A stretch of 63,678 bases of DNA, filler included, from 11 parts of 11 records of this genome joined end to end with filler, not necessarily neighbours in it; one strand, 5' to 3'. Positions 1-58,729 are shown, counted from the whole stretch's first letter. Made by a program: numbers and translations. Notes: generated by a model from the sequence alone, not told the origin.

Positions 1-176
1 TCAGAAGCAAACATGGCAAATCGGCCCTCTACCAGTACATACTCCAACCCACGCACCCTCTGACGTGTGACGACGGACCTGCCGGCGGTCGCATCGCTCG
101 CCTGCACGCATACGATGGCGGGGCACGGCCTGCACGTCGATTCGAGTAGATAGTGCACCGCCTGTACGTGTATACG

Positions 177-3100: not shown

Positions 3101-6054
3101 GGCGCTGTCTCGGCCTCACCTGTGGCAGGTACATCGTTGGAAACCAGCTTTACCATCCTTGGCACAGACTGGCAGGACGAAGACCTTCCGCTGGCTTATC
3201 AGTACATGTGTGAACTGAAATCTGGTGCGTTTGCACTGACTGGCATTGTGCGCCGCGCAAACATTACAACAACGCTACCCCCTGGACCCCTAGAAGCTGA
3301 TATTCCAGGACGTTACGAGGTTGCACTGCAAGTGATTGATTCTTATGCTGCCAAAGCAGTAGCTCGGGTGAGAGTAACGGTGCTACCCTACGAAACTCTC
3401 GATTGGGCCAGTGATACGGAGCAAAAGATTCGAGGTGTTGTTGACAGTGACTTGCCGATGTTGATACGCAGCATCGGAATTCGTTTGAATCAAATCGATT
3501 TGACGTTTGAGAACGCGTCAGACCCAGCTATCATTGCCTTGCGAGAGGGGATCACAAAAGCAAGGGAGGTGAGCATTGTAACTCTGATGAAAGGCAGCGC
3601 GCGGCTGCCAGAAGTGGATGAGACTCTTGCCGGAACTTTTTTCGGCGCCTTTCGAGACCTTTCACAAGAAGCCGATATGATGACACAGAATGCAACAACT
3701 TCGGCGTTTCAGACCATTCAATTGCTTGTTGATGAACAGGCTTTGCTCTCCGACGAGTCAGCAGCTGCTGTCACCACAGCTGTGAGCAACCTACTTGCTA
3801 GTGGTACTCAGGGAGCTAATGCATATGCAAACCAAGCTAGCACGTTGGCACTGCAAGTCATGGATTCTGTTAATCAACGAATCGCAGCACGACTGGTCCC
3901 TGGTGAGCAGGAGGTCGCTGTGTCTACAGCACAGCTAGAGCTGACGGTACAGAAGCTGAAAAGCTCCAGTCTACGGGGGAAGACTCTCGCAGGGGGTCGA
4001 GTCACTCTCCCAGCTTCTCTGTTATCCGCAACTGAAGATGACCTGAGTGTGGCGGCTGTGCTGTGGCAACAGAATCCTTTCGCGTTTACCCCTCGCGATG
4101 GTGCAAGTCGGCGCACACTTGCCGATGCTCCTGCTGCTCGTTCTGATCTGCACCTCTCAACTCGTGTTCTGAGCCTTGATGTACTAGATTCGAACGGCCC
4201 CGTGGTGCTTGACGACCTAGATTCGCCATTCATCGTCAACCTTCCCATAGATGGCGCTCCTTCCAATGAATGGAACATGAAACCTGTGAACTGTACTGCG
4301 GTTCCGTGCGCCGACCAGTACGATGCTGCGCATGAACCTGGCCAATGCCATGAACTGACCACTAGAGGTGGATACACCTGCGCGGCCGATTTCTGCTCCG
4401 ACTGTCCCCACAAAGAATATTGTGAAAAGACATGCAGTTCAGGCTGCCATGAGATCGACATCTGTGACGCAGACTACTCAGTGCTGGATGCCCCCGGTGT
4501 GCTGCACGACGATGAGCCTAGAGGCGGTGTTGACTGCACATCAGTCGCAGAGGCACACATCGAGCACTGTGGACGCCCATCAAACAAAGGGACATTCGAG
4601 CTCCATGGTAATACTGGCTATGGAGATAATCTTGACTGTGGGAAGGTGATTCGAGCACCAGTCGGCCACCGGATCATATTGAAGTTCACGCACCTCGTAC
4701 TTGAGAATGTACTCGGTTGCCCCGATGGAGGCTGTGATGTCGTCACAGTGTATGATGGTGAGAACGCGGATGCACCTCGCCTCGCAACATTTTCTGGCAC
4801 TGAGCTTCCGAGCCAAGAACTTTACAGTGGCGGCCAGTCTCTGTACGTGCGCTTCACGACGGATACCGGGAACCACGGACTGAGTGTAGTGCAGGAGTCT
4901 CGCGATCCAGGATTCTTCGTCGACTACAACTTCTCACCGTTGTTGCAATGTAACCTGCCGCCAGAACCTTATTGTGCCCACTGGGTTCATGCCGACGGCA
5001 ACGACTGGCGCCAAAGTGGAAGGGTCGTTAGCCAAACGGATGAACACGTTCGCTGCGAGTTCGATAGTCTGGCAGACTTTGGCGGACTGCTCGGGCCACC
5101 CCTTGAGCGGGTCGGATTGCACCATCGAGATGATGGTATTTCCTACGCGCCTATGCCTGGCAGCATGCTCGGCACCGTCTGCTCAATAATTCTACTGATG
5201 GTGGTGCTCGGAGCGACAGGCGCCGGCATGCTTAGACATGCCCGTATCTTACGTCAAATCAAAGCCAAGGGCAAGCAACATCTGATTGGTGAGCTCAAGT
5301 TTAAAACGTATGGTAAGGCAAGGTTTCAGCTCGAGACTCTGCGTACTCGCCTTCTGCGCCGGGCGCAAGCAATAATTGACGCGGGTTTCTGGGGCGAACA
5401 CAAGTACAGCAGCATGTTGAAGGCAGCGGTAAAACGTTGGGCAGCCCGGGCAAAACCGCGTAGACCAATGATGCGCCTACAGACGCGGTGCTTCGGCCGG
5501 CAGCTATGCTGTCCGTTGGAAGGAGATCCGTTTGCTGGACCGCAAGCCATCGCAGTTGCCGCTACATCTGTGTTATGTAGTATGGCTGTGTCACTACTTC
5601 TGTTCTTCAAGACTGCATCCGACATGGTCGATATGTGTCGAATCTCCGACGGCACAAGTGAGGACGCTTCAGAGTTTTGCTGGACCTACCTGTGTGGGCA
5701 GAGCCCATGTGAAGAATGTGCAGCATGCGGCGGCACAGATAAAGAATGGAGTGACAAGCAAGGGCCATGGGCAGCTTGGCGTGAACCAGTGTGTGACAAG
5801 GCATGCTACTTTCAGCCGGACATCATATGGTCAGTCTTCGTGACAATATGGTGTCTGATTCCTCTTTGCTCCGTCTTGAACTGGGCGTTCATTTGGCTTA
5901 ACGCCCCGCTCGAAAGGCTGATAATGAAAGACGATGAACCAGATCCGCAGCAGGTGGATTCAGAGGTTGAAGATCCTTACAACAGTGGAACTGAAGAACC
6001 TTTGATTCCAATCGCGATCGAAGCGCCGGAGCCGGAGCCGGAGCCAGAGCCAGA
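177..6054 (+). CDS. Polycystin-1-like surface receptor: signal peptide, many Cys-rich CxxC..G.Y (GCC2/GCC3, ephrin-receptor-like) repeats, REJ-like region, GAIN/GPS with embedded CUB domain, TM segments; 3' end truncated at contig end
   Basis: Exon 1 (177-231) encodes MAGRALLVLALFGAVGVQ. Phase-1 intron 232-353 (GTTCGT...ACTGAC...CCGCAG) joins it in frame to the 236..6106 ORF. REJ-like motif NSPPSGG..ASPVAGTSLETSFTI..WQDEDLPLAYQY. CUB motifs YGDNLDC..IRAPVGHRIILKF..CDVVTVYDG..LYVRFTTD. GPS-like YCAHW..W..G..VRCEFDSLADFG, then TM segments. Confidence 0.8.
6025..6054 (+). repeat. Hexanucleotide repeat encoding (PE)n at the contig end
   Basis: CCGGAG/CCAGAG tandem units immediately before the N linker. 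Confidence 0.85.
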
Positions 6055-6154
6055 NNNNNNNNNNNNNNNNNNNNNNNNNNNNNNNNNNNNNNNNNNNNTT
6101 AATTAATTAANNNNNNNNNNNNNNNNNNNNNNNNNNNNNNNNNNNNNNNNNNNN
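6055..6154. other. Artificial contig linker (N44-TTAATTAATTAA-N44)
   Basis: 100-nt N spacer with stops in all six frames. Identical linkers at 17725-17824, 25150-25249, 31204-31303, 34783-34882, 38428-38527, 43490-43589, 47168-47267, 51751-51850 and 58379-58478. Confidence 0.99.
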
Positions 6155-17708: not shown

Positions 17709-17824
17709 CGGTGACGGGGGGCGCNNNNNNNNNNNNNNNNNNNNNNNNNNNNNNNNNNNNNNNNNNNNTTAATTAATTAANNNNNNNNNNNNNNNNNNNN
17801 NNNNNNNNNNNNNNNNNNNNNNNN

Positions 17825-17852: not shown

Positions 17853-20800
17853 GTACCACGGAAGGGCATGGCACGAGCGTAAACCGCAAAGAAGAAGAAT
17901 GAGATGATGCCAGCTGCAAAAGCCTGTTCTACAGAGCCTTGGCTGAAGAAGATGATGGCCCCGGCAAGTAGCATCTTCCGCACCAGTTCGATACACTCGA
18001 AGTAGTAAAACTCTGGTTTGTAGTCACGAGTGAGGAAAGAATATTTCTCCGAGCCCCCCTGCCACCATTTCTTCTTCTTGCGCTTTGCACGACCAGCACG
18101 CTTTTGCAGGGCAGATACTACCGCTGGTGGTAGCCCAGTCGAATCGATACCGCTATCTTTCTCGTCGTCCATCTTGTCGGTTGCGTCATTGGTCGAACCA
18201 AGCAGCAGAGCCATCCCAGATGCTTCAGTCGTCTCGTTCTTGAGCGTCTGACGATTAGCGTAGAGCAGAACAAAGAAAATCGCGGGCACTCCAACCGGAA
18301 AAGCGAACAGCATCACAAAAGAAAAATAGGAGAAGAGAATGTAATCGTCACTGTGACAGTCTACCTCGTAGTAATCTTGATGATAGCTCTCTCCCTCGTC
18401 CAAGTCACGGCATGCAAAGGCTCGGAACGAAGTCTTACTGAGGTACGGGTACAGCATGAAAATCGCAAAGAACGATCGGTTGAGCGCCGACTGATAGGCT
18501 GTGCCTTCCCTCTTCGCCTGTCTGCCAGACTGGGTGCAGAGACACAGCGTTGGTGGGAGGAACAGTAGTACGATGATCCCCGGCAGCAGCACCGCAGCAA
18601 GGGCTGTATTGACATACAGGCTCGTGTTGTAAAAGCAGTCGACTCGTATCAACTCGATAATGTCGAGGAAAATGATTTTGACGTAGCTCAGCATATGAGT
18701 AAACGCCGGCGGATATGTAATTGACAGCGTAAAAGGGAACGAGCCAACGACTTGAAAGAGCGAGACGGCGATCTTGAATTTCGTCTCCAGGCCAACGTGA
18801 CGCATCTCCTCACCCTCAGGCAGGCCAGCTGCTTGCATTTCGAGATGTGGCCTGAGGATCAGCCGCCACAGCAGAATCATTGGCACTGCAATGGCTGCGG
18901 CTACCGCCCCGTACCAGCTTTTACCGCCTCCTTGCTCGCTGCACTGGATGCAGCCTTCCGTTGTCCTATGCCATTGGGGAGCACAGATCGCACAGAGGAC
19001 GCCTGTCCATACAAAATTGAAGTCAGTTTTCTGTGTCTGAATAAGCACTGCGTTTGTACAAAATTGAAAAGTAATGGCAATTACCTGTGTATCCCTCCCT
19101 ACAACGCATCGAGAGCGAGCTGTTGGCTGGATCTTCGCCGAGGCAGGCTCCCTCATACGGGCACTTGAACAAGTTTCTTTCCGGTATAGCTATACTGTCC
19201 GATGCTGACTGCTCTTGCAGGCTGCCGAGCGTGCTTGCACTGGCGTTCGAAGAAACGCCAATGGTGTCCAGGTACCGCTCTCTGCCTTTCTTGCTGAGAG
19301 ACCATCCGTCTAGTGCAAATGGTATCCCGGCACTACACTCGGCGCAGCTCAGTCCGGGGCCGGGGAGATCCGAACATGTCATGCAGGCTCTTCCTTGCTT
19401 CGCATCGTGGATAGACAATTGCACGGAACTGTAGTCCGTCACAAAGCAGGACAGCAGGACATGTGACGAATCGAACGAGCCGATCGGAAATTGCGCCGAT
19501 CCACTTGGGCAGACGCATGCATCGCTGGCGACTGTAGGCACCATGGTTGGATCGCTGCAGCGAGCGCACGCCATCCCACTCCCATCATTGAACGTCCCCG
19601 CCTCACAAGCAACACATGCAGTGCGAGCATCGTTCGGTGCCTTGCCCGCTTCACATAAGATGCAAGCGCCACCGTCGGTGCTTACCCACGTCTGTTGGTC
19701 TCCCATCGCGAGTCGTTGACATAGTTCACACCCGTCTTGAGCAGCGTTGGGCTCCGAGCCCAAGGGACATCGCACGCAGCCACCATCCGCTGACCCGTAG
19801 TAACTGAGTGGGCAGACCATACTGAGACTGGCAAAGACGCTCTGCCCGGGTGCAAACCCTGATATTGCGTCATTGGAGACCTGCTCTTCAAGGCTAAGAA
19901 GTACGTCCGAAACAATTTTGTCCGCATCTTGCAGCATCACTGACCGAATCGCGAACTCGACTTCGATGGCCGGTGCTGGATGCACGATGAGTTCACCTAT
20001 TGGCGACCCAGCCACCGACACGTTCGGCGACAGCGCCGTGCGAAGAGCGTCTGCACCAACCATCGCATCGTCGGGGGGGCTGGGCGCGATGGTAAACGTC
20101 ACCACGATGCTTCCTGCTGCTATATGTGCGACCTGCACGCGGTCTTGCTGAATACCAAGCAGCGCAGCAATGTCACTGCCGAAGTCCTGAGCAAAGGCCG
20201 CTCGAGCAGACACGCTCGAGACGTCTTCGACATCGATAGACAAGCCAACGTCGGCCGTGCGGTTTGGCATTGCAGATCTGCCAACGACTTCGATGGCTTT
20301 GATCGGAATGTCCATTGCAGCCGCCATCGATATGACAATATCATCAGAATTTGCATCTCCGAGGACCTGCATAGTCAGCACTGCATCAGGCACAGCTGTG
20401 TCGGGCGAGTCGACTCTACAGGAAGTATCGTCATTTTCGGTGCTATTATCGCACACTCCACAGAGGTCCAATGCACTGAACCCGCCCCACACGCCTGCGC
20501 AGTCCCGAGCACAAGGTAGGTCAGTGCACTGACCACACTCATCGACCTCGCCAGGACCATTTGGCACACCGTAGCAGTCAGCGCAAGACGTGCTGTCACC
20601 AGCACACACGAGACATTCGTCGATTTCGGCGCTGCCGCCCCATACTCCAACACAGTCTAATCTGCAGTCATTCGTTGCGTTTGTGTCGCAGATGCCACAC
20701 GAATCGACGTTTGACACACCATTAGCCAAGCCGGCACAGTCTGCACATGTAGCTCCATCGTTCGTTGAGTTGGTATCACACACTGAGCAAGCATCCAATT

Positions 20801-23800
20801 CGGCCAGGCCTCCCCATGCACCAGCACAGTCAGGGGTGCAATCATTGGCGCTCACTGTGTCGCAGGTTCCACAGTTGTCGACAGTTGCATTTCCGTTCGG
20901 CACACCTGCACAGTCTGCGCACGAATCACTTGCTCCTCCACACACGCCGCACTCGTCGATGAGCAGATCGACGGAACCAGGCGCAATTCCTACGCCCGGA
21001 CCCGTTTGCCCTCTGCAGTTTGGAAGGCAGTCATTTTCCTCTGTGCTGTCACATGTGAAACAGTCGTCATAAAGCGACGGCCCTCTTGCTGCGAATACAA
21101 CTACTGCGCCATCTTCGCACTGCCATGTGCCTGCAGTTCCAACCCTCAACGGAATCTTGTCTGTCCGGCCACTACTAGCTCCATCCACTGAGCAATACAT
21201 CGGTTCCATATCTCCGGCGCAATCAGCACATGTACTGTTGTCGCCAGCACACACACCACAAATATCGACCACTGCGCTTCCCCCAACGTCACCATTGCAG
21301 TCAATAGCTAGCTCCACCGGTGTCCCCGCCAATACTTTATCTGGGTCAGCTCCTGTGGCTGAGGCAACAGCCGAGGAGAGCCCAGTTGCTAGGACATCCC
21401 ATTGCAGTCGCCGGCGGCGTCCTCCATCGGCCGATTTCTGGACTAACAACTCGAAATTGAATGAAACTGTCGGCTCCGGAGCTGCTGTCAGTTCCGTCGT
21501 GCCAAGTATCGTGATGAAATTGAGTTCTAGTCCAAGTGCAGCTGCTACAGACTCTCTCATCGCCTCTCGGGCGGCCTCGTCGAAGCTGCTCAATGATCCA
21601 GGTATATCAACGCTGATGCGAACAGCTTCACGACAAACGTCATTGCCACCACAGATTCCACAAGCATCAACGACTCTTCCTCCCCCAAGCTCCCCAGCAC
21701 AGTCCTGGCGGCAGAAGTCTCCCGGCTGCACACATAGCCCACATGCGTCAATCGTGGCTCCTCCCCGGACTACACCCGCGCAGTCTAGACAACTCTGTCC
21801 ATCGCCATGGCAAACTCCGCAGACATCTTCAACCGCGGCTCCTCCCCAGACCCCAGCGCAGTCCCGGAGGCAGGAGTCTCCCGGCTGCACACAATCCGCG
21901 CAGCGATCCACGATCGCGGGCCCGAAAGGAACGCCGCTGCAGTCAGCACAACTGCCATTGTCGCCATTGCATACGGAACATCCGTCTCGCACCGCTGCGC
22001 CACCCCAAACACCACTGCAATCACGCGTACATGTAGCCCATGGCAAACCGCATTCTCCACAGCGATCAATCTTTGACGCGCCATTTGGGATGCCTGCACA
22101 GTCTCGGCAGCTGCTGTTGTCGCCGTTGCATACAGAGCACGCATCTTGTATCGCTGCGCCACCCCAAACACCCAAGCAGTCTCGTTGACACCTATCGTCT
22201 GGACGGTTGCACATGCCACACCGATCAATCTTTGACAAACCGTTCGGGACCCCTGCACAATCTAGGCATGTGCTGTTGTCACCATTGCAAATCGAACACG
22301 CATCAAGACTCAAGCCACCATCTGTGTAAGGCACACCGTCGCACCCAATCAGCGCAGAGGTGTCTACTGGCTGTGGAAGTCCGCAACCCTGTGGACCGTA
22401 GCCACTGCCAACGAATCCGTCCAAGCACGCTTTGCATTCGAAGAAACCTTCGTGGTTAACACAGCCTTTGCTGTACCGATGACAGCAACCACACTCCGAG
22501 TCTACCGGATTTTGCTGAGCATCATACGTATAGCATGAGTCCGTAGTGTTTCCTGTGCAGATCCCACCTTGGGAGAAATCGGTAGAGTGCTGCGCGTTAC
22601 ACTCGTCAATGTCGATGCAAACCTGTGTCCCGTTTGCAGTGAACCCAGGCTTGCAGCGACAGTTGCTCCTGTCGAGTGGTCCTAGTGGCTCCGAATTAGG
22701 CCAGCATTCCTGGCAGCTGATGCCATCTGAACTGTATGCGTTCAGACCTTGGACGAGGCAAGAGTCACATCGGCTCTTGTCAGCAGAGGTTTCTGTTCCA
22801 GGAGCGCACTGCCGACACAAGTCGCCAATGCTGTATTCCCCGTCAGCGCATGAAATGCATTCGGTGTTATCGGAGTTGGGCATCTTGCCAGCAGTACAGT
22901 CGCTGCAGACAGCGCCGTTCATACTGATCTTGCCGACACGCGCACTGCTGAGTGTTCCATTCTCGACTCGCTCATTGTGCTGCCGAGACAGATGCGTGCA
23001 GGCAACACATCCAGCGGCTCCGGAAGGTAAAGTGGGCTGATGGCCGTTCGGGCAGACAGCACACTGCTTGCCGTCAGGGGAAAATTGGCCAACACATACG
23101 CTGCAGCCTGTCTTTGCGGGATTGACCGCATACCCTGATGGACACCTTTGACACTGCACACCGTCAGACGAGAAGTAATATGGATCCGATGCGTTGATGG
23201 CCCCACACAGCTCGCAACGGGCCCGATCTTCTGTTGGCTGATAGCCTGCGAGGCAACGTGCACAGCTCGAGCCATCGGTTGAGTGATACGGTCCACCGGT
23301 CAATGAAACCACGGCACCGTCTGCACCGACAACCTCGTAAAGTTTTGCTGAGCAGTTTGAGCATCCAGTTGCGTCTGCGAGGGGTTCCTGGCCAGGCAAG
23401 CAGTCGCGACAGAGAACCCCATCTGAGCTGAACTTTTTGCTTCGCCCGACACAAGTATCACAAACGCGCTTATCGTTCGATGGTTCCGAGCCTGCAGGAC
23501 AAGAACGGCACAGGTCGCCGACACTCACTTCGCCTGCCTCACACTCGACGCATTCAACCCGAGTTTCGTCCGGTTGTTTTCCTTCCTTGCACGCCACACA
23601 CTCACGGCCAAGCGGGCTGTGCAGGGCCCCACCGAACTTCTTGGGGACGCAAGAGTGGACCCCTGACGATTCGAGGCACCCAACAAACCCATCGCCCAGC
23701 AAGGCACAGAAGTCAGTGTCAATCTGGTCCCTTGACGCGTGCCGAGTGCATGCGCACGACACGCATGCTACGCGATCATCAGACGGCTGAGCTCCAGGCA

Positions 23801-25149
23801 GGCAATCCAGGCACACTCCGCCCTGACCAGCTTTACCACTTGGGCACTCCGCGCAACTGAACTTGTTGGCATCCGGTTCCGTCCCGTCTTGGCATCGATC
23901 GCATCGGCCACCTTGTCCTGCAAACCCGGCATCACATGGGCTGCAAGCATCACGCGATGCTGACGGGCTCTTTCCAGGGAGGCACTGGATGCAGGTCTTC
24001 TTATCTGTACTAACCATGCCAATCTCATCGTCTCTTAACCCACACTCGATGCACTCGTGGCCGTTCGGACTGTACATTCCAGCGAGGCAGGCTGTGCAGG
24101 CCGTTCGCTCTGAATTGGGCTCTGAGCCCTCGGCACAGTTCTCGCACACACCGCTTGTGCCGGCTGTACCAATACTACATGCGACACAGTTCTCGCAGGT
24201 ATCTCCATTGCAGTTTTCGTTCAACTGCAGTCCAGCGCCACAACGTGTGCATTGCTGTATTGACGGGTCGAAATACTCGTTCTGTGGACAGTTCTCACAA
24301 CCAGTACGCCCTGCGTTTGGCTGTTTTCCTGTTTCACACTGAGTGCACCTGGCTCCATCGGTTGAGTGCTTGCCAGCCTGACACGGGTTGCACATCCGAC
24401 GTTCATCGTCAGCTTCTCTTCCAGTGGCACATGCTACACACGGTTCTCCATACTCAGACACGAACTGCGGACCAGACAGATTGCAATCATCGCAGCTGGT
24501 CAGATCAGCTGACGGCTGTTTGCCTGGACCACAAGTGTAGCATGCAACGCCGTCATCACTGTATGCATTCAGCCCTTGAACAAGACAAGAGTCGCAGCGA
24601 CTTTGATCGCCAACAGGAGCTGTTCCAGGAGCGCAGCTCTTGCAGTCGTCACCGTCACTGTATTCCCCAGCACCACAAGACATGCACTCTGTGTTGTCAT
24701 CGTTTGGCATCTTTCCGGCGGCACAGTCGGCACAGTCGGCGCCGTTAATACTGACCTTCCCTACACGTGTGGTGCTAAACGTGCCGTCGTCAACCTGGAT
24801 GTTATGGTCGGCTGCAAGCTGTGAGCACGCTACGCAGGAGGCTGAACCCATCTGCGCAACTGCCTGCTGGCCGTTCGGACAGTCAGAACACATTTTACCG
24901 TCCGCTGAGAACTGGCCAACGCAAACATCACAGCCAGTTCGAAGAAGATTCGGCTGGGCACCAGCATCACAAGCAACACACTCAGCACCTGCGAAGCTGA
25001 CAAGGAAAGAATCTCCGACAGCCAAACACGACTCGCACGAAGTTCGTTCAAAGTTTGGCTGACTACCTGCCGGACAAGGCGTACAAGGGCCTCCAATAGC
25101 AGAAATCAAACCAATGCCAATGTCAGAGCAAGGCAGGCACGCGGTGCGA
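17853..25149 (-). CDS. Giant Cys-rich multi-pass membrane protein (CxxC repeats, EGF-like unit, DC.G..GG...D.CGVC.GD repeats, SEA-like spacers, C-terminal TM bundle); both ends truncated; intron 19003-19084
   Basis: The 2028-aa ORF stays open to the contig end. The intron (GTAATT...GGACAG) gives CREGYTG|VLCAIC and joins the TM region with KFKIAVSLFQV, FACRDL, GVPAIFFVLL and YKPEFYYFECIELVRKMLL, a tail typical of large protist Cys-rich membrane proteins. Confidence 0.85.
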
Positions 25150-25533
25150 NNNNNNNNNNNNNNNNNNNNNNNNNNNNNNNNNNNNNNNNNNNNTTAATTA
25201 ATTAANNNNNNNNNNNNNNNNNNNNNNNNNNNNNNNNNNNNNNNNNNNNGGGGGGTTCACACCCGCTGTGGGCGCGGAGCGCCGCGGACGACGGACCAGC
25301 GCACGCGAGTTGCGTGCGACGATGCATCGGATTCGTTGCAGTCCGGCGTCGCGATGCACGGCGGGGACGGCAGCAGGATCGTGACATGTCGATCCCCAAC
25401 GTCGGCCTGACGTGATTAGGCGGCGGGCGTCTCGCCACCCTGGCAGCACGCCTGACGTGTCGGGCCCTGGGAGGGTGGTCGCCGTCGGGGTAGCGAGACA
25501 GTGGCACTGCCAGACACTGTCGGGTGTCGGCCG

Positions 25534-31152: not shown

Positions 31153-31880
31153 GCCGGGCAAGCGAGCCGTTGACGCATGTTTGGGGGTGTCTCATTTTCA
31201 CTGNNNNNNNNNNNNNNNNNNNNNNNNNNNNNNNNNNNNNNNNNNNNTTAATTAATTAANNNNNNNNNNNNNNNNNNNNNNNNNNNNNNNNNNNNNNNNN
31301 NNNTCGTTCCAGGGTGCGCTGACTGGTACAGTATATGGGCTATGCTGAATACATTTCGATTGTTTTGACTGTGCTGAGGATTGAACCGGCTGAGCCAGCA
31401 ATTGGCGCTGGAAAAGAGGAGCCAATCCCGATGGATCATGGATCATGGATGCTATGGGGGATTTGCCGAGTCGACCGAATCGCGAGTCCGAGTGGGCCAT
31501 TCAACGATTCAAAAATGCAGGCTCAAGGCTCAAGGGCGGCTCATGCACCAGGTCAGGCAGTGAAAATCAGTGCGCAGTGGGCAGGGAGAGCCCCCCCACC
31601 GGCCTGGCAGCCCACGATGGTGCCCTCCTGACCAAGAGCAAGAGCGCTCTTGATACCCATACGCCATAGGGAAAGGGATATACGATGCGATGGCCGCCGA
31701 GGGAGGAGGGACAGCCACAGGGAGGCTTCACGAACAACTTGAGCACCTACTACTATACTAGCTACTAGCAGCAAGCAGGCAGGCAGCAAGCAGGCAGCAA
31801 GCAGGCACAGGAGCGGAGCGCTGACCAAGGGGACGAGGAAGGGGGAGGGCTCTGGGGACAGCTCTCTCTGATCAAGAGAG

Positions 31881-34584: not shown

Positions 34585-35073
34585 CCCGTGTGTCCACAGC
34601 TTGGTCAATCGCTTGGTCAGCAGCAGCAGCAGGGCGGCGTCGTGTGTCGGCGGGTCCGTCAACAGAACCGAGCTGTGCTCGGTAGCAGTAACCTGTTCAT
34701 CATTCCTACAGTATCATACTGTGCCGCGATGCGGTACATGTACGGCCGTGTGCCCAGTGCGCCGCCGGCGGTCAGAATGAGCNNNNNNNNNNNNNNNNNN
34801 NNNNNNNNNNNNNNNNNNNNNNNNNNTTAATTAATTAANNNNNNNNNNNNNNNNNNNNNNNNNNNNNNNNNNNNNNNNNNNNGTCGTTACCACCACCACC
34901 ACCACCACCGTCAGCAACCTAGCATCTATCAAGTCATGTGTTCCCTTGGCTTAGCCACGAGAGCAGTTTGTGTAGACTAGGGAGAGCAGGAAGGATAGGT
35001 AGCCGGCTGATGGCTGTTGGTGGTACGCCTGGATAGCAGGCTAAACTGTTGTACCCACATAGGCTCGCCCCCA

Positions 35074-38338: not shown

Positions 38339-38527
38339 AAGATACGTGCGGGACGCGCGGCGCTTTCCTCTCGCGCGTCGATACGCGCGCGTACGTAGGG
38401 GTGCAGCACTGAAAAGAGGCCAGATTGNNNNNNNNNNNNNNNNNNNNNNNNNNNNNNNNNNNNNNNNNNNNTTAATTAATTAANNNNNNNNNNNNNNNNN
38501 NNNNNNNNNNNNNNNNNNNNNNNNNNN

Positions 38528-41500
38528 TTCCTGCATGCACGAGGTCTCGCCACTGACGACAACACGCCATGGATCGGCGGTCGAGTCGCTCGGAAGGTGC
38601 ACCTCGAGCTCGGAGTGCCCGTCGCAGCAGTCCTCAAAACCCAGCGACTCGAATTCGTGGTCGCCCAGCGTCAGCTCCACGGACGTCAGTTGCAGATGCC
38701 CCCAAAGGTTGCCTGCACACACCACAGCCATTTGCTTCAATTTTTCTCGCGGTAGGTCCATTCTAAAAACTCGAGAATTTGAGCTAAGAGAGAAAAGAGG
38801 GCGTACCCGGTGTGTGCTCAGGGCCGTCGACGCCGATGAAAGAGCCGCTGCCGAAGTCAGCGTGGTAGCGGAAGTTGTACGAGCCTGGAGCATTGCATCG
38901 GAACGGGATCCGCACGTGGAAACCGATGTTGCTGTTAGATGCCCCCGTCTCCGCCCCGCCTGGGCCTTGGCAGACGTCTTGGTTGGAGAGGTAGGCGGCA
39001 GAGGCAAGAGACCCCATGCAGTATCCCTCAGGCTGCGGATCCACCATCTGACACTCGACGAAGATCCGCAGCGCGGCAGCGTACGACGGGGTCGCCATGC
39101 TGGTCACGTCGTACGTGCACTGTGTGGTTGCGAATTGCACGCAGCCGAAGATCAGATCCTGAGGATGGGAAACGTCCGTACTCGCGCAGCCAAACGAGCA
39201 ACCGCTGCACTTGACACAGCCGCCATCGCACCCGTGCCAATCATCACAAGTTGCACCATCCTGGCCTGCGCCAGTATGGGTGTGGCACTTGGTTGCGCCT
39301 TGACTGCCAGGATTGTAGCACATGGCCCCCTGATCGATTGCATGCGTGCAGTCAGACTCGCGCTCGATTGCCGGCGGGTTGTCGATGCTATCGTCGTTGC
39401 TGCCGGTGCATTCCACGCAGTTGAAGTCGGTCGGAGACGCAGGTGTGCCGTCGTCTCCATTGTGTCCGTTCGAGTGCCAGTCTGCCGGGTGAGACTCGCA
39501 CCCAAAGAGGCTGTCTGGCAGTGGATTGGTGGCAGGATCTTCGGGGTTGTCCTGGTCGGGTGGGAAGCACTTCCGGTAGCCAGTTACGACTGGCAGTGGC
39601 GTGAGGTCGGGACCACCTGCGCCGTAGGTGTAAAGCGAGCCTGTCTCGTAGCCGAGGGCACGGCAGACAATCTTTGCAGGGTTATCATTATCCCAGTAGT
39701 AGTGGCCACACATCGTCCCCCAGAGCCCTTGTCCGTGGTTGGCGTCGGGGTTCCAGACCTCGATTCGCCCCTGCGGTGTCGATGAGAGACGCACAGTCTG
39801 CGAACTGCTGCAGGACGCGACAGAGCCAACGGTACCGCACTGAGCGGCGGAGTCGGTGTCGAATCGGCACTCGGGATGGTCACCCAGGGGTGTTTCACCC
39901 TCGAGGCAAGGCGTCGCTCCCGACACCACTACCCTCCAGACTCCATCCTGGGAGTTCTGGTCAACGATCAGCTGCACCTCGAGCTCAGAGTGGCCGTCAC
40001 AGCAGTCCTCTGATCCAGCGCACCATAAAACAAGGTTAGGCCTCTTGAAATGCACATTTTGGCCGACTGAATGACACCGACTGATTGGCTGACGTCCACC
40101 GCATGTGGTCGGTCGGCCAGCTAATGATAGCAGTGGAGAAAAGAGAGGCACAATCCAGACGAAGCGACTGGTAGATAGATAGTGGCAGGCAGGAGAGATG
40201 GAGTCTGACGGACCGAAGCCAAGCGCCTCGTACTCGTGATCGCCGGTCGTCAGCACCGACGTATCCTGCAAGTGGCCCCACACGTTGCCTGGGCGATACG
40301 ATTCTTTGTGTCAGTTTTCCTAGATGGTCTGGGTCTGACTGTCTTGGCAAATTCGTGGGGTGCAGAGAAATTTGGAAGATAAAAGAGAGTGAGAGTGCCC
40401 AGATACCTGGGGTATGCTCCGCGCCGTCGACTCCGATGAATGAGCCGAGGCCGTAGTCAGCGTGGATCCGCCAGAGATATGTCCCGGCCAGATTGACCTG
40501 GAAGGGGATTCTAATGTGGAAGGCGATGTTCGTTGTGGCACCTTCCAGGCAGACGTCCTGGTTGGACAGGAATGCAGCTGAGACGAGTGCGCCACGGCAG
40601 TAGCCATCTCTCGGCGGGGCAGACGCGCAGCTTGTGTAGGCGTTCAGCGCATCAGCATAAGAAGAAGCCGTGGCCGCAGAGCTCGCGTCATACTCGCAGT
40701 ACACAGACGCAAATTCAACACAGCCGAAGACCAGATCCTGGCTGCTGTCTTGCCGACCGTCCATTGCTCTGGCGTAGGCGTTGCCGCCGCAGTTCTGGCA
40801 GCCGTTCGTATCGCAGTGGTGCCAGTCATCGCAGCTGTCAGCGCCGTTGTGGGTGTGACAGTTGAGCGGCCTTGAGTCTCCGTTGAGGCAGATCGCACCC
40901 TGGTCGATGGCGTGATTGCACCGACCATCTGGGTGCACGAAATCATAGTCTACAGTCCAGACGTTGCCCGCACTTTCGCATGAGCCCTGGTCGTTGATGG
41001 CGCCTTCCTGCCCAGAGGAATGATCGCTCCCAAGGCCAACGGCGGCGCCGTCAGGAGTCGTGCAGTAGCCTGGATTGCCATGCTGCGGGCAGTCAAAGAT
41101 GTTTGGTGGGGCTTGGTTCGTCTCAGATTCTGGCTGATCGGGATTAGGGAGCTCGCAGCGGCGGTAGCCTGTGACAATCGGCAGGTCGAGCACGGTCTCC
41201 GAGCGCGAGTTGCCGAAAGTGTAGAGTGAGCCGTCCTGGTAGCCAAGCTTCTGGCAGACTGCCTTGGCAACATTGTGATTATCCCAGAACCAGTGACCAC
41301 ACACAGTTCCCCACGTTTCCAGTACCGGGCTGTACACTTCAATTCTGCCCTGCGGGTAGTCGCTCAGCCGGTAGATGTCCGCCGCCTGCACACGCTCCGG
41401 CGGCGGGGCTTCTGCGACACCACCGCAGGCCATGCCCATGCCGGTGCTACCGCAGATAGCAGCGGCAGCGGTGCCAGCGGTGCACGTGGCGTCGTGTTTC

Positions 41501-43342
41501 TTGCAGCTCATACAGTCGTGCTGTCCACTCTGAACGACTCGCCAGGTTTCGTCGTCGGCATCACATGGGAGATGGACCTCGAGCTCCGAGTGCCCGTCGC
41601 AGCAGTCCTCGAAGCCCAGCGCTTCGAATTCGTGATCGCCGACCGGCAGATGCTGATCCGAAATCTGAACGTGCCCCCACAGATTGCCTGGCGTGTGCTC
41701 AGCACCGTCCATGCCGATGAAAGAGCCAGCGCCGAAGTCAGCATGGTAGCGGATGTGGATCGTCTGCTCGATGTCAACCAGCAGCGGGATGCGAATATGG
41801 AACGCGATATTCTCGGTTGCACCGCCCTCGCACACGTCATGGTTTGCCAGCATGGACGCCGTAGTTAGCGAGCCGTGACAGTAGCCAGGCACGTCCGCGT
41901 GCCCCTCCAGGCAGGCGGAGAACTCAGCGAGAGCACGCGTAAAAGAGCCGTGGCTGTTTGCCGTAGCATCGTACACGCAGTTGGTCGTGTCTACCACAGA
42001 CGCGTAAGGAGTCAGACTTTTGTAGTCAGAGGAGTGATAATAGAAGGCCGAGAGGCAGAACGGCGAAGAGAAAGAACCACGGAGGCAGATGGAGAGGCAT
42101 CAAGACCGAGGGACGGCCGATGGGTAGAGATGAAGCTCACAAAACTCGATGCATCCGAAGAAGAGCGTCTGGCGATCTTCTCCATGAGTTTCGTCTGTGC
42201 GTGAAGAGAGACCCCCGTGCATATCACAGCCCCCGGCGCCGTTGGCGCCGCAGCCGCTGCACGCGGAGCTGCCGTCGGCATTGGTCGCCCAGGCTTGCAG
42301 CGGGGTGATTTCCGCGCCATCGCCGTAGCAGACGACGCCCTGATCGATGTGGTTGCTGCACCCAGAGTTGCAGCCGTCGCGGGAGTCCGGGTCGCTGTAG
42401 CACGACGCTGCGGGGTAGCTGAGATGATCTGCGTCGGGCCCACCCATGTGCAGTTCGCAGTCGAGAAGTGAGGCTTCGGTGCCGTCGCAAGTCTGGAAGC
42501 CAAGGTGAGCAGGCAGCTCGCGGAGGTTGAACGACGCGCCGTAGGTGAAGAGTGCGCCGCTGACGTAGCCGAGGTCGCGGCACGCAATGTTGGCTGCTTC
42601 GTCGTTGTTCCATAGCCAGTGGCCGCAGACCGTGCCCCAGCTTGGAGTGTCGCTGCGCGTGCCATCAGGCAGGACCTCTCCGGTGAAAACCTCCAGCCTC
42701 CCAGTGCAGCCGCTTGCAGTGCACTGGGAGTTGCCACCCGTGAGGCGGATGATGCCACTCTCCGAGACGCCGACCGGGCTGGTGCGCCCCCCTGGAGATG
42801 CTCCGCCAGCGTTGTAGCTGGGGTTGCGGCTGCCAGAACCGCCGGGAAGCCCGAGTCCGTTGCTGGCGCCGTCGCCGGTGGCACTACCGTCATCTCCTCC
42901 TGCAATGTAGATGACGACAACCACCAGAGCTACGATCAGTGCCACCAGCACGCCGAAGATCTGCTTGACCTGGTCGTTGGTGACTTTCTTGCCGCAGAGC
43001 GTCAGGTCAGCCATGCTGTCCCACCAACCCGAGCTGGCCATGGTCCCGTCCTCGGGCGCACCCTGCGTTGTGGCAGCCACCAGCGGCAGCAGCGACGTCA
43101 GCCCCACCCTCTGTGACCGAGAACGGGACACAGCCCCCCGGTCCTACTCAATGTTGCGAGCTCTACTCCCTCTGCGAGGCGCTCTCAGATCAGCATCAAA
43201 TGTGTGCGTGCCATGCCGCCTGCCAACCAGCACTCACATAATCCGGTACAGCATCTGCCGGCGGCGGTGCCCCAGGCTCCACCGGCAGACCGCCCGGCGG
43301 CGCCTCCGGCTCCTTCGGGATCTCGCTCTCGTACATCGACAT
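38528..43342 (-). CDS. Type II membrane protein with three tandem [SRCR + Cys-rich linker + CCDG-motif domain] modules; 3' truncated; introns 43063-43237, 41991-42140, 40289-40406, 40010-40213, 38713-38806
   Basis: MSMYESE start and TM IFGVLVALIVALVVVVIYIAG. Three SRCR cores GR(L/I)EV..WGT(V/M)CGH..A..(A/V)C..LGY..H.IDQG..C. Three copies of GYC..N.DVC..NI.FH.RIP..HAD(F/Y)G.GSFIG.DG.EHTPGN.WGH..GDHE..LGFEDCCDGHSELEV. All five GT-AG introns restore the frame. Confidence 0.85.
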
Positions 43343-43462
43343 CTCCGCGCTCCTCCCGCTCCTCACCGGGGGCCCTCGTCGCCCCTGCACCCCTTCTCCT
43401 GCCGCAGCAGCCTCCTCCCCAAGGGCAGCCTCCTGTAGCTCCTCCCCAAGGGGAGCCTCGCA

Positions 43463-43489
43463 AGCAGCAGCAGCAGCAGCAGCAGCAGC
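43463..43489. repeat. (CAG)n microsatellite at contig end
   Basis: About nine CAG units before the linker. Other contig-edge microsatellites lie at 34889-34908 (CAC), 51721-51750 (CAGA/CAGG) and 58353-58377 (GCT). Confidence 0.9.
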
Positions 43490-44149
43490 NNNNNNNNNNN
43501 NNNNNNNNNNNNNNNNNNNNNNNNNNNNNNNNNTTAATTAATTAANNNNNNNNNNNNNNNNNNNNNNNNNNNNNNNNNNNNNNNNNNNNCCAGACACTCT
43601 CAGAGAGTGTCTGGCGGCGGGCGCCGAGCAGAGTGGTAGGGGTTGAGGAAAAGTGCTCATTGAGCCGAAGGCCACCTCCTTCGCGGCGCTGGTGGGTGCC
43701 GCCCGGCCCACGCCAATCACCACGCGCGCCCCAGCAGGGGTTGGTTAGAAGGGCTCTAGCTAGTAGGACACAGCGATACCGGCGAACGTGATTTGGCGGT
43801 CTTTGCAGCACCTTCGTCGATTTCCCCGATGGTTTGAAGCGCCGCGATATATTTATAAAGTATAGTTTCCACCGGTTTGGCTGCCAATCTTGTGCAAGCA
43901 GGAAGACAGCGAAATTTATTTTTCACAATAAGGAGCGGGCTCCTTGACAAGACTTCTGTGTTCTGATTCTGGTTTCTGAACACTGGCACCTTAAGGTAGT
44001 AGTAGTACGAGATTGTAATGTTCCGGTCTCGCTGGGTCCAGGATTCTCATCTCTCAGTGCCGCAAACGATTCCAACCCAGCCGGTGGTACGGAAGTGCTC
44101 GTTCCCATACTATTGACTGGGGAAAAAAGGCGGACTTTTGAGCGGTGCG

Positions 44150-47167: not shown

Positions 47168-47851
47168 NNNNNNNNNNNNNNNNNNNNNNNNNNNNNNNNN
47201 NNNNNNNNNNNTTAATTAATTAANNNNNNNNNNNNNNNNNNNNNNNNNNNNNNNNNNNNNNNNNNNNCGATTCATGAATTTAGACACTGGCCCTAAGACA
47301 CCTACTATTAATAGCTAGAGAGCCATACTCTTCGATTCATGAGGCCCAGTGTCTGCCTGAGAATACATGTATTGATTACCGAGGAGTTCTTCCTACAGTG
47401 AATCATTCGTATTATCATAATGATAATTTCACAAGTCCGGCCACTCCGCTCAAATCAAGTTCTTCCTACAGTAGGGTACAATCTGGCCTCAACAAGTTCA
47501 CGAACGCAGATGCCCATCAGAGGATGAGCGGTTTTATATACCTGGGTACATGTACCGTAGGAGACAACTGAATCACGTAGGTTTAGTTGACAAGTTGAGC
47601 GCGCGCGCGCGCGGACCTCTCTCGCTGCGTCAACAACTTCGCCAAAATTAGAACCAGCAAGCAAACGGCGACGGACTGAGGTGGCTCGCTAGACGCCTAC
47701 AAGAAGGGTCCTTGCACAGCAGCAAGCAAGCTTGACCGCAGCTCACCGCAGCAGCGGGCACGCACATTGCCTACACCTGGCCACAGAACGAGGCGCCACT
47801 CAGGGTTCGGCGAGTCGCCAAGCTCACGGCACAGTCGCGCAGTCGGGGCTG

Positions 47852-51656: not shown

Positions 51657-51850
51657 CTGCTCCGAGCGACCAATCAGTCTCTTGACATACACAGCGTTGT
51701 CAGAGAGACATATGCACATGCAGACAGGCAGACAGACAGGCAGACAGGCANNNNNNNNNNNNNNNNNNNNNNNNNNNNNNNNNNNNNNNNNNNNTTAATT
51801 AATTAANNNNNNNNNNNNNNNNNNNNNNNNNNNNNNNNNNNNNNNNNNNN

Positions 51851-58378: not shown

Positions 58379-58729
58379 NNNNNNNNNNNNNNNNNNNNNN
58401 NNNNNNNNNNNNNNNNNNNNNNTTAATTAATTAANNNNNNNNNNNNNNNNNNNNNNNNNNNNNNNNNNNNNNNNNNNNCGGGCATAAGGCCCTTATGCCC
58501 GTTGTCACAACCTGTGGGCTGCCAAACACGGTCGCATGCCTCGCGTCGGCAAAAGGACAAGTTACAAGACTCAAAGACAGCGTGCGCAATGGCCACTAGC
58601 TGCTGTACTTGTGTAGTGTCTGAATTGTGATATGGATATATATGTGGCAAGAAACAAAATTGTAGGTCGACTCGGGCGCTTCGTGTGGATGGATGATTGC
58701 GTGTACGCCCATTCGCGTGGCACTACATT

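Follow-up and report, generated by a model that had tools for sequence, protein, structure and literature searches.

What kind of protein alternates SRCR domains with a domain familiar from bacterial surface proteins, which organism makes it, and what might it do there? These questions are raised by a gene on the minus strand of a 4.96-kb contig, at positions 38528-43489 of the stretch of DNA analyzed here (63,678 nucleotides, hereafter the window). An earlier note, written from the sequence alone, had read positions 38528..42760 as a type II receptor of three units, each with an SRCR domain, a Cys-rich linker, and a second domain resembling the PA14-like domain of bacterial CCXG-family PEP-CTERM proteins, and had proposed that this second domain was bacteria-derived and served prey recognition. 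Here we report that the gene is a real, expressed, and spliced eukaryotic gene. We somewhat favor, over the alternatives weighed below, the interpretation that its product, a type II multi-unit protein of SRCR and CCXG domains, is a glycan- or polyanion-binding capture receptor of a marine protist that is probably a picozoan.

The gene is spliced and expressed

All coding signal on the receptor contig lies on the minus strand, where five exons (43041-42141, 41990-40407, 40288-40214, 40009-38807, and 38712-38528) join into a stop-free frame of 1316 amino acids. The four introns separating them all have GT..AG borders and lie in phase 1. Intron 1 (41991..42140, 150 nt, GTGAGC..TAG) is a prediction based on the frame together with the repeat pattern FGCIEF-Y-TTNC. 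Intron 2 (40289-40406, 118 nt) and intron 3 (40010-40213, 204 nt) interrupt the second copy of the CCXG domain, and intron 4 (38713-38806, 94 nt) interrupts the third.

Contigs of four public runs, one of DNA (X1) and three of RNA (X14, X15, and X16), were aligned to the receptor contig. RNA joints were observed at 38711>38806 (intron 4) and 40009>40214 (intron 3) in both X15 and X16, and at 40287>40406 (intron 2) in X16. All three have CT..AC ends on the plus strand, X15 and X16 are metatranscriptomes from two different studies, and the joints of introns 2 to 4 were absent from the contigs of the DNA run X1. Against the window, X16 record 25, one of the spliced RNA contigs, has a single difference in 478 positions, so that an origin of the joints in another organism's paralogue is unlikely. 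Splicing of intron 1 was not seen, as the sole RNA contig across it (X14, 41616-42211) is unspliced; X14 contigs are also unspliced over introns 2 and 3, and this library therefore probably represents DNA or pre-mRNA. The gene stretch, or part of it, was present in at least 19 runs of marine or seawater samples, drawn from 14 studies.

Could the locus instead be a bacterial contaminant contig, or a chimeric assembly over paralogous repeats? The assembly is fragmented, and X1 contains a few long-range joints between repeat units (skips of 357-2408 nt, with short sides of 21-40 letters), which we judged to be cross-repeat or paralogue joins and not locus structure. However, the spliceosomal introns are confirmed by RNA joints, X1 contigs tile 38651-43455 with few differences and only two short stretches uncovered, and independent relatives keep the order of the units. 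The units, only 48-54% identical in protein, are also too unlike one another for an assembly to collapse them. We consider an artefact of either kind very improbable.

The gene occupies the region given in the earlier note and extends beyond it at its 5' side. Exon 1 (42141..43062, minus strand) contains an ATG at 43041-43039, which is the start if no upstream exon is used. A probable upstream coding exon, exon 0 (43238..43342, minus strand), would encode a Pro-rich cytoplasmic tail ending in VPDY, with the frame open to the contig end. It is predicted without RNA support from its splice sites, the donor GTGAGT at 43237 and the acceptor cag before 43062, which delimit a probable intron 0 (43063..43237, minus strand, 175 nt, GT..AG), and it is in frame with exon 1. 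The join of exons 0 and 1 recreates VP[DE]Y-G, a sequence conserved at the N-termini of the relatives P0008 and P0009; within the Pro-rich tail, VP[DE]Y may be a candidate sorting or WW-domain-binding motif. At the other side the gene runs off the contig at 38528. A GCT/CAG trinucleotide repeat occupies 43456-43489, the contig end upstream of the gene, where the reads were apparently cut.

The product is a predicted type II membrane protein of repeated SRCR-linker-CCXG units

Residues 28-46 of the 1316-residue model (42904..42960, minus strand) form its sole Kyte-Doolittle peak above 1.6 (3.34). This helix is flanked by three Lys/Arg and one Asp/Glu on its N-terminal side and by no Lys/Arg and three Asp/Glu on its C-terminal side. 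The positive N-flank and the acidic C-flank thus indicate a type II signal-anchor, in agreement with the topology first read. By direct reading, the stalk that follows is rich in Gly, Ser, and Pro and lacks G-X-Y repeats, and it leads into three units with a period of ~425 residues, each composed of an SRCR domain, a Cys-rich linker, and a CCXG domain of ~160 residues with an invariant Cys-Cys. The recurrence is evident from motifs such as CCDG (residues 430, 856, and 1283), WGTxCG (135, 527, and 950), IDQG (231, 661, and 1077), and FGCxEF (295, 722, and 1141). Identity between units is 48-54% over the whole unit, 56-66% for the CCXG domains, and 44-46% for the SRCR parts. The proposed three-fold architecture is therefore borne out by the open frame, the RNA joints, and the repeat alignment, while three units are a minimum, since the gene continues past the end of the contig. 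A relative on a metagenome contig (L081, 72% identical) has a fourth SRCR-linker-domain unit after its third, and in the relative P0261 (2000 amino acids) four alternating units are followed by a tail that appears CBM9-like by eye; a metagenome scan for orthologues confirmed one locus among 21 pattern matches. The ectodomain of the receptor has at least three units, and probably four or more.

All parts of the units lie on the minus strand. SRCR 1 (42322..42756) matches PF00530 with an E-value of 7.6e-11 and 42.7 bits (gathering cut-off 26.1), and matches the SRCR domains of LOXL2, CD163, M2BP, neurotrypsin, and SR-A in the PDB with E-values of 4e-8 to 1e-3. SRCR 2 (40876..41379) matches the same family over profile positions 7-70 with an E-value of 6.1e-6 and 26.9 bits, just above the cut-off. 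The divergent SRCR 3 (39309..39800) is 44% identical to SRCR 1 and 2; it had no Pfam match at E<=1, and its N-terminal half matches the M2BP SRCR (1by2) with an E-value of 5.3e-6. In units 2 and 3, an insert of ~60 residues precedes the last conserved SRCR block. The linkers, of which linker 1 (42168..42321) is Cys/Gly-rich and linkers 2 (40738..40875, C.H.H...CDDWH.C..GC..C) and 3 (39159..39308) are Cys/His-rich, matched no family in the Pfam scan; all three were delimited by the repeat alignment.

CCXG copy 1 (41512..41988) is intron-free, with its first strand FFGCIEFY encoded in exon 1 at 42141-42167, while copy 2 (39906..40704) is split by introns 2 and 3, both seen as RNA joints, and copy 3 (38537..39128) by intron 4. 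The codons of the vicinal cysteines, near-invariant in the family, are at 41599..41604 in copy 1, 39999-40004 in copy 2, and 38624-38629 in copy 3, and the longer motif string that the earlier note had quoted around them is present in all three copies. A profile of the domain finds the three copies in the spliced protein with E-values of 1e-55 (copy 1), 8e-53 (copy 2), and 5e-55 (copy 3).

Introns 2 and 4 cut copies 2 and 3 at the identical codon and phase, after HTPG, where copy 1 is intron-free. L081 (1-3147) reads uninterrupted through the positions of both introns, and its second copy has an apparent intron after FHIRIP, with a possible frameshift just before it. Since L081 differs in this way from the window gene, intron positions vary among close paralogues or orthologues.

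The protein is also depleted of N-x-S/T sequons. Its 1316 residues include 58 Asn and no sequon, against 8.06 expected, and none of 2000 shuffles gave as low a number. The same depletion was observed in 12 of 13 relatives tested, a set that includes P0261, P0262, P0004, P0136 (0 versus 16.7 expected), P0162, and P0090; the exception was P0109 (27 versus 24.5). Sequons were not depleted in 12 other long open reading frames of the window, two Cys-rich ones among them. By these counts the depletion is specific to the receptor family, and it may reflect avoidance of the cell's own glycans.

The second domain is homologous to the core of bacterial CCXG PEP-CTERM proteins

The likeness to bacterial CCXG PEP-CTERM proteins, proposed in the earlier note, was confirmed by profile search. 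The model NF038118 (CCXG family PEP-CTERM protein) matches exon 2 with an E-value of 3.2e-18 and 66.1 bits over profile positions 16-153 of 199, and it matches the exon parts of copy 3 with E-values of 7.6e-6 and 2.4e-4 (25.7 and 20.9 bits). The bacterial motif quoted in that note matches the consensus of 27 bacterial CCXG proteins, with which the window domain has GYC, N..C.G, NIAFH, FR, D.G.G, DG, W, G.H, and G.E.CCDG in common. The core with the CCXG motif is present three times as CCDG, and the bacterial rows of the alignment, to which the window domain is 17-29% identical, have its invariant or near-invariant residues (D, G, G, D, G, H, E, C, and C) in common with it. The best match does not reach the curated NF038118 cut-off of 90 bits. 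The PEP-CTERM sorting signal (PF07589), found in 25 of 59 alignment members, all of them bacterial rows, was not detected in any exon product; the C-terminus of the gene is missing, but the CCXG domains are internal. We therefore regard the three copies as a homologous domain and not as members of NF038118.

Proteins of NF038118, such as WP_367789331.1 of Chitinivorax sp. PXF-14, have the homologous core of ~140 residues in an extracellular setting, as does the receptor. They are, however, single-domain proteins of ~200 residues with a signal peptide and a PEP-CTERM tail, whereas the receptor domain is internal, repeated, flanked by SRCR domains, and tail-free. The bacterial form is further set apart by an eight-residue WW...G insert and by the absence of the extra LPC...C cysteine pair that the eukaryote clade has.

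A HMMER search over 1.84 billion representatives gave 265 clusters at E<=1e-3. Among the 150 matches listed, one (P0199) has a true PEP-CTERM tail, and its cluster includes WP_367789331.1, which carries the name 'CCXG family PEP-CTERM protein'. The bacterial PEP-CTERM family amounted to 28 clusters at 90% identity in the protein search, and when 185,579 species genomes were scanned with a pattern, 110 bacterial loci were confirmed. The 80 of these that are listed belong almost all to Burkholderiales (Janthinobacterium, Duganella, Massilia, Roseateles, Accumulibacter, and Zoogloea), and a few to Acetobacteraceae. In all 58 full-length loci the gene itself is the only one to recur, while flanking open reading frames reach at most 21 of 58; the flanks thus represent genus-level synteny and give no operon clue. 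These homologues are PEP-CTERM proteins at the surface of Burkholderiales that form flocs and biofilms, and PEP-CTERM proteins have been tied to exopolysaccharide systems in the available part of PMC1569441. Our literature search, which left most subscription journals uncovered, found no paper on the NF038118/CCXG family and no published function for it.

The CCXG domain is a probable divergent branch of the PA14 superfamily

By sequence, the CCXG domain matched no Pfam family at E<=10, and its profile had no match in the PDB at E<=10. An AlphaFold model from a 59-row alignment (pLDDT 85.9, pTM 0.81) has an N-terminal helix and a seven-strand beta sandwich. The best Foldseek match of this model was 6m8m, the PA14 sugar-binding domain of an RTX adhesin (E-value 4.1e-3, probability 1.00, TMq 0.49), followed by MpPA14, Epa, Flo, Cea1, and CBM6/35/36. 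When the model was aligned to 48,161 chains, five had a Z of at least 8. Four of these five are PA14-type, with 122-139 residues aligned at an rmsd of 3.0-3.6: 6qe7 (Z 8.9), a tandem-PA14 RsgI sensor as described in the available part of PMC6852018, Cea1A (8.7), MpPA14 (8.5), and 6m8m (8.5). In a second structure comparison the 13 best entries were all PA14 or Flo-type lectin domains, with 122-138 of 159 residues aligned and Z of 8.1-9.2, moderately above the Z of 7-8 typical for models without a true relative.

Profile comparison points the same way. With hhalign, the domain matched four PA14 segments of relatives, a thin four-sequence profile, at 64.5% probability and an E-value of 6.3e-5 over 75 columns, while the controls (LamG, C-type lectin, SRCR, and reversed PA14) gave 0.1-2.7%. 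The domain profile also matches residues 1520-1597 of P0136 (E-value 7e-4), where Pfam PA14 occupies 1517-1599. The nearest ESM Atlas clusters were all PA14 (score 0.86), which we take as a lead only. Taken together, these fold and profile comparisons uphold the PA14-like nature suggested at the outset, and we conclude with moderate support that the CCXG domain is likely a divergent branch of the PA14 superfamily. Pfam PA14 domains occur elsewhere in P0072, P0090, P0136, and P0194, besides the CCXG domain; because true PA14 sits at another place in the same proteins, the two have diverged as separate modules.

The hhalign register pairs D.G.G..G.DG of the domain with sDDG..l.vD of PA14, L..G.H with l.aG.h, and GFE.CCDG with FFE.GG.A, so that the Cys-Cys pair falls in the PA14 E-x-G-G turn. 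The PA14 lectins (MpPA14 6m8m, Flo, Epa, Cea1, and RsgI 6qe7) are like the CCXG domain in their beta sandwich, predicted here, and in their occurrence in extracellular adhesins or sensors; the CCXG domain differs by the added N-terminal helix, a probable GYC...VC disulfide, and the position of Cys-Cys in the E-x-G-G turn.

The behavior of the cysteines across the family bears on how they may pair. In 147 of 155 near-complete domains, the GYC and VC cysteines occur together with CC; in 5 both are absent and CC is kept, and in one further domain one of the two is absent, the other position is gapped, and CC is kept. The GYC and VC cysteines never occur singly, consistent with a conserved disulfide between them. 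Because CC is kept where both are absent, the CC pair is independent of the GYC/VC pair, and we infer, as the most likely arrangement, a vicinal disulfide between its cysteines in the loop that corresponds to the E-x-G-G turn of PA14. Vicinal disulfides contact the ring faces of ligands (arabinofuranose in 1wd4), stabilize structure, or act as switches, as described in the available part of PMC12102755.

The architecture is common among unannotated, probably picozoan, relatives

The exon-2 query returned 71 proteins, and the domain query against longer proteins returned 66. In their source names, the relatives carry only 'hypothetical protein' and EukProt labels, and all eight whose EukProt accession was read come from 'Picozoa sp.' single-cell assemblies (COSAG02, COSAG06, SAG22, and SAG31). 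The host is thus best described as a marine protist and is probably a picozoan, an assignment that stops short of proof because exon 2 shares ~80% identity with its nearest relative other than itself. Three domain-bearing paralogues, P0245, P0033, and P0061 (EukProt SAG22_NODE_1 genes 20, 21, and 26), lie on a single 62-kb contig, which suggests a local gene cluster.

An SRCR-like motif together with the CCXG domain was found in 17 of 19 long relatives examined, often in alternation. The architecture thus appears to be common in its lineage, yet it is unannotated in every one of these proteins; of the earlier note's concern that it might already be widespread and annotated, the former holds within the lineage and the latter does not. 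Among 68 relatives of at least 250 residues found with the domain alone, the Pfam partners were C-type lectin (14), SRCR (8), LamG (5), PA14 at a different position (4), DUF2341 (3), WSC (2), and CBM9, Hint, and Big_2 (one each), while 31 had no Pfam match. This partner set is a lectin and adhesion neighborhood.

Other proteins carry the domain without partners. P0121, P0138, P0162, P0184, P0146, P0167, P0099/P0211, and P0090 have 3-8 tandem domain copies alone and form their own clades, and tandem-only metagenomic proteins include a GEGCCDG subtype. A tick 'filaggrin-2-like' protein (P0079), in which phmmer reported 23 stretches at 26% identity, was rejected as a compositional match, since the domain profile misses it.

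The eukaryote-type and bacterial clades are separate

We built a quick maximum likelihood tree of 117 domain instances over 145 columns, which is unrooted. The eukaryote-type clade (55 rows, SH-aLRT 100) includes all three window copies, the bacterial PEP-CTERM clade comprises 25 rows (SH-aLRT 91), and the tree also holds several groups of unknown or prokaryote-type architecture. There is no nesting of one main clade in the other, and support at the deep forks is weak (59). The window copies are not closest to one another; the first copies of relatives join copy 1 with a support of 98, and the repeat is therefore old.

On this tree, the proposal that the domain is bacteria-derived found no support. 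That a protist lineage gained it from a bacterial CCXG PEP-CTERM-type gene and then shuffled it would fit the facts that the named members are bacterial only and that the domain occurs in further prokaryote-type architectures, with DUF2341 (P0172, P0189, and P0196) or Big_2/invasin (P0187), which group loosely with the PEP-CTERM clade. However, the bacterial family is small and mostly confined to Burkholderiales, whereas the eukaryote-type set has more members and a wider range of architectures. With neither clade nested and no root, the direction of a transfer cannot be read, and a transfer the other way, or separate descent of the two from PA14 ancestors, is an equally good fit. A bacterial source is for these reasons unlikely in our estimation, and any transfer would be ancient, given the identity of only 17-29% between the bacterial rows and the window domain.

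The remainder of the window

The window consists of short contigs chained by 10 N44-TTAATTAATTAA-N44 linkers (20 N-runs in 10 pairs), at 6055-6154, 17725-17824, 25150-25249, 31204-31303, 34783-34882, 38428-38527, 43490-43589, 47168-47267, 51751-51850, and 58379-58478. Because the contigs were joined artificially, their order is biologically meaningless, and genes outside 38528-43489 are unlinked to the receptor gene. Two very long Cys-rich open frames of ~2000 residues each lie at 71-6106 (plus strand, 6% Cys) and 19023-25193 (minus strand, 10% Cys). In a six-frame scan of the whole window the CCXG domain was found on the receptor contig only, and not in these two frames.

Discussion

The results above describe a membrane protein for which the model of the gene, its splicing, the signals of topology, and the homology of the domains are shown and the fold class is probable, and from these we derive a ligand class and an uptake role that are conditional. 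We hypothesize that a short Pro-rich cytoplasmic tail, a single membrane helix, and a Gly/Ser/Pro-rich stalk would carry an ectodomain of tandem units, in which the repeated SRCR and PA14-like modules would provide multivalent, low-affinity binding. Likely ligands would be polyanionic or carbohydrate surfaces, for example those of marine colloids and gels, virus particles, or bacterial envelopes, and the receptor would hold bound particles at the cell surface for uptake. SRCR receptors and PA14 lectins have known binding roles. We base the capture hypothesis on these roles, on the lectin-rich partner domains, on the exopolysaccharide context of the PEP-CTERM proteins, and on the invariant Cys-Cys pair, and we judge it somewhat more probable than not.

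Several observations weigh against this hypothesis. The sole cultured picozoan, Picomonas, feeds by fluid-phase bulk endocytosis and has no discernible glycocalyx, according to the available part of PMC3608682; because bulk endocytosis of this kind needs no receptor, receptor-based capture is weakened. The same part of that source describes uptake of colloids below 150 nm, not of bacteria, and intact bacteria attached end-on to the plasma membrane. In view of this feeding, the 'prey recognition' first proposed for the protein has to be widened to the capture of particles, colloids, or viruses, or to the tethering of bacteria. At the level of fold, Foldseek gave no match at E<=1e-3, Pfam PA14 (PF07691) did not match the CCXG domain even at E<=10, and the fold evidence alone is moderate since a Z of 7-8 is common without relationship. 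In a model of the 528-residue exon-2 product from a 44-row alignment (pLDDT 50.7), only the first domain is confident and values are below 50 nearly throughout residues 173-491. The lectins Flo, Epa, and MpPA14 bind sugar at a Ca2+-dependent Asp-cis-Asp site. In the hhalign register, an aromatic residue of the CCXG domain stands opposite the second Asp of the PA14 'DD' (D-F in the window and D-F/Y/W in the family), so that by alignment such a site is probably absent. The invariant D.G.G, G.H, and G.E align with PA14 core motifs and may have a purely structural role.

Adhesion unrelated to feeding is a serious rival, in which the protein would have a structural or adhesive role at the surface, in contacts between cells, gametes, or cell and substrate, or in tethering surface-attached bacteria. 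We regard it as considerably less probable than capture. In its favor, the PA14 domains of yeast Flo, Epa, and the Marinomonas RTX protein, which the fold matches, are those of adhesins, bacteria attach to the Picomonas membrane (PMC3608682, available part), and Plasmodium LCCL/CCp proteins with SRCR, LamG, and PA14 act in complexes in sexual stages (PMC10892792, available part). The cytoplasmic VP[DE]Y could, as a speculation, fit a trafficking receptor, but no result here separates adhesion from capture. Quite another role would follow if the CCXG domain were a metal-binding, redox, or catalytic module, with its Asp, His, Glu, and Cys-Cys forming a site and the SRCR domains being accessory, as in the lysyl oxidase-like proteins and TMPRSS. 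The residues D, H, E, C, and C are indeed invariant across all three clades, the eukaryote clade has many conserved His, and in LOXL2, to which SRCR 1 has its best PDB match, SRCR domains stand beside a catalytic domain. On the other hand, the invariant residues align with core motifs of the non-catalytic PA14, no enzyme family was matched in the Pfam and NCBIfam scans, the partner domains are lectin-type and not catalytic, and three- or four-fold tandem repetition is typical of binding modules; such a module is improbable.

A capture receptor of the kind favored here would resemble known systems only in part. The class A scavenger receptors SR-A1, MARCO, and SCARA5 are likewise type II proteins with an extracellular SRCR, and CD163 and DMBT1 likewise have tandem SRCRs in a pattern-recognition ectodomain (CD163 and SR-A SRCRs match at E-values of 6e-8 to 1e-3). 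SR-A and MARCO, however, have a collagenous G-X-Y stalk and a single C-terminal SRCR, whereas the receptor described here has neither and carries several internal SRCRs. It also differs from the scavenger receptors in having no coiled-coil stalk, in alternating SRCR with a PA14-like domain, in its inserts of ~60 residues, and in its protist host. The Plasmodium LCCL/CCp (LAP) proteins are extracellular proteins of a protist that combine animal-like with bacteria-like modules for adhesion, among them scavenger-receptor, LamG, and PA14 domains. They carry the scavenger-receptor and PA14 domains on different members (CCp3/LAP1 versus CCp5 and FNPA), are secreted and not type II, as far as the available part of the review describes them (PMC10892792), and lack a CCXG-type domain or an alternating repeat.

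This review was also the only text in the literature search that named SRCR and PA14 together, there on different proteins. No published SRCR-CCXG architecture was found in that search, which was thin on subscription journals and excluded supplements, in keeping with the earlier note's statement that the architecture was not known from described proteins. Nor did it find, with subscription journals mostly uncovered, any literature joining Picozoa with SRCR or SRCR with flagellates, and the text of the Picozoa single-cell genomics paper (PMC8599508), supplements excluded, mentions neither scavenger nor lectin. What is new is thus a probable PA14-superfamily branch in an SRCR-alternating type II architecture, while the kinds of components were already known.

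A more far-reaching scenario can be drawn, which as a whole we hold to be doubtful. Picozoa, perhaps with allied uncultured marine protists, would have expanded endocytic multi-lectin receptors particular to their lineage, on a PA14 branch not recognized before in which a vicinal disulfide, in place of a calcium site, is the sugar platform, for a selective 'nanophagy' of colloids and viruses below 150 nm; the domain would have passed between domains of life in ancient times and would hold floc-forming Burkholderiales in their exopolysaccharide matrix, and the avoidance of sequons would stem from selection against self-glycans.

Picozoa are abundant, and they have been cultured once, briefly, in a culture since lost (PMC8599508). 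As relatives of red algae they hold a pivotal phylogenetic position, and their feeding is known only from electron micrographs of that one culture. For these organisms, a transcribed and expanded family of scavenger-receptor and lectin-type proteins provides concrete, expressible candidates for particle capture. The CCXG PEP-CTERM family, which has a name and as yet no paper, Pfam model, or structure, would gain its first structural and evolutionary placement as a probable divergent PA14, and its invariant Cys-Cys becomes a candidate ligand-binding or redox element.

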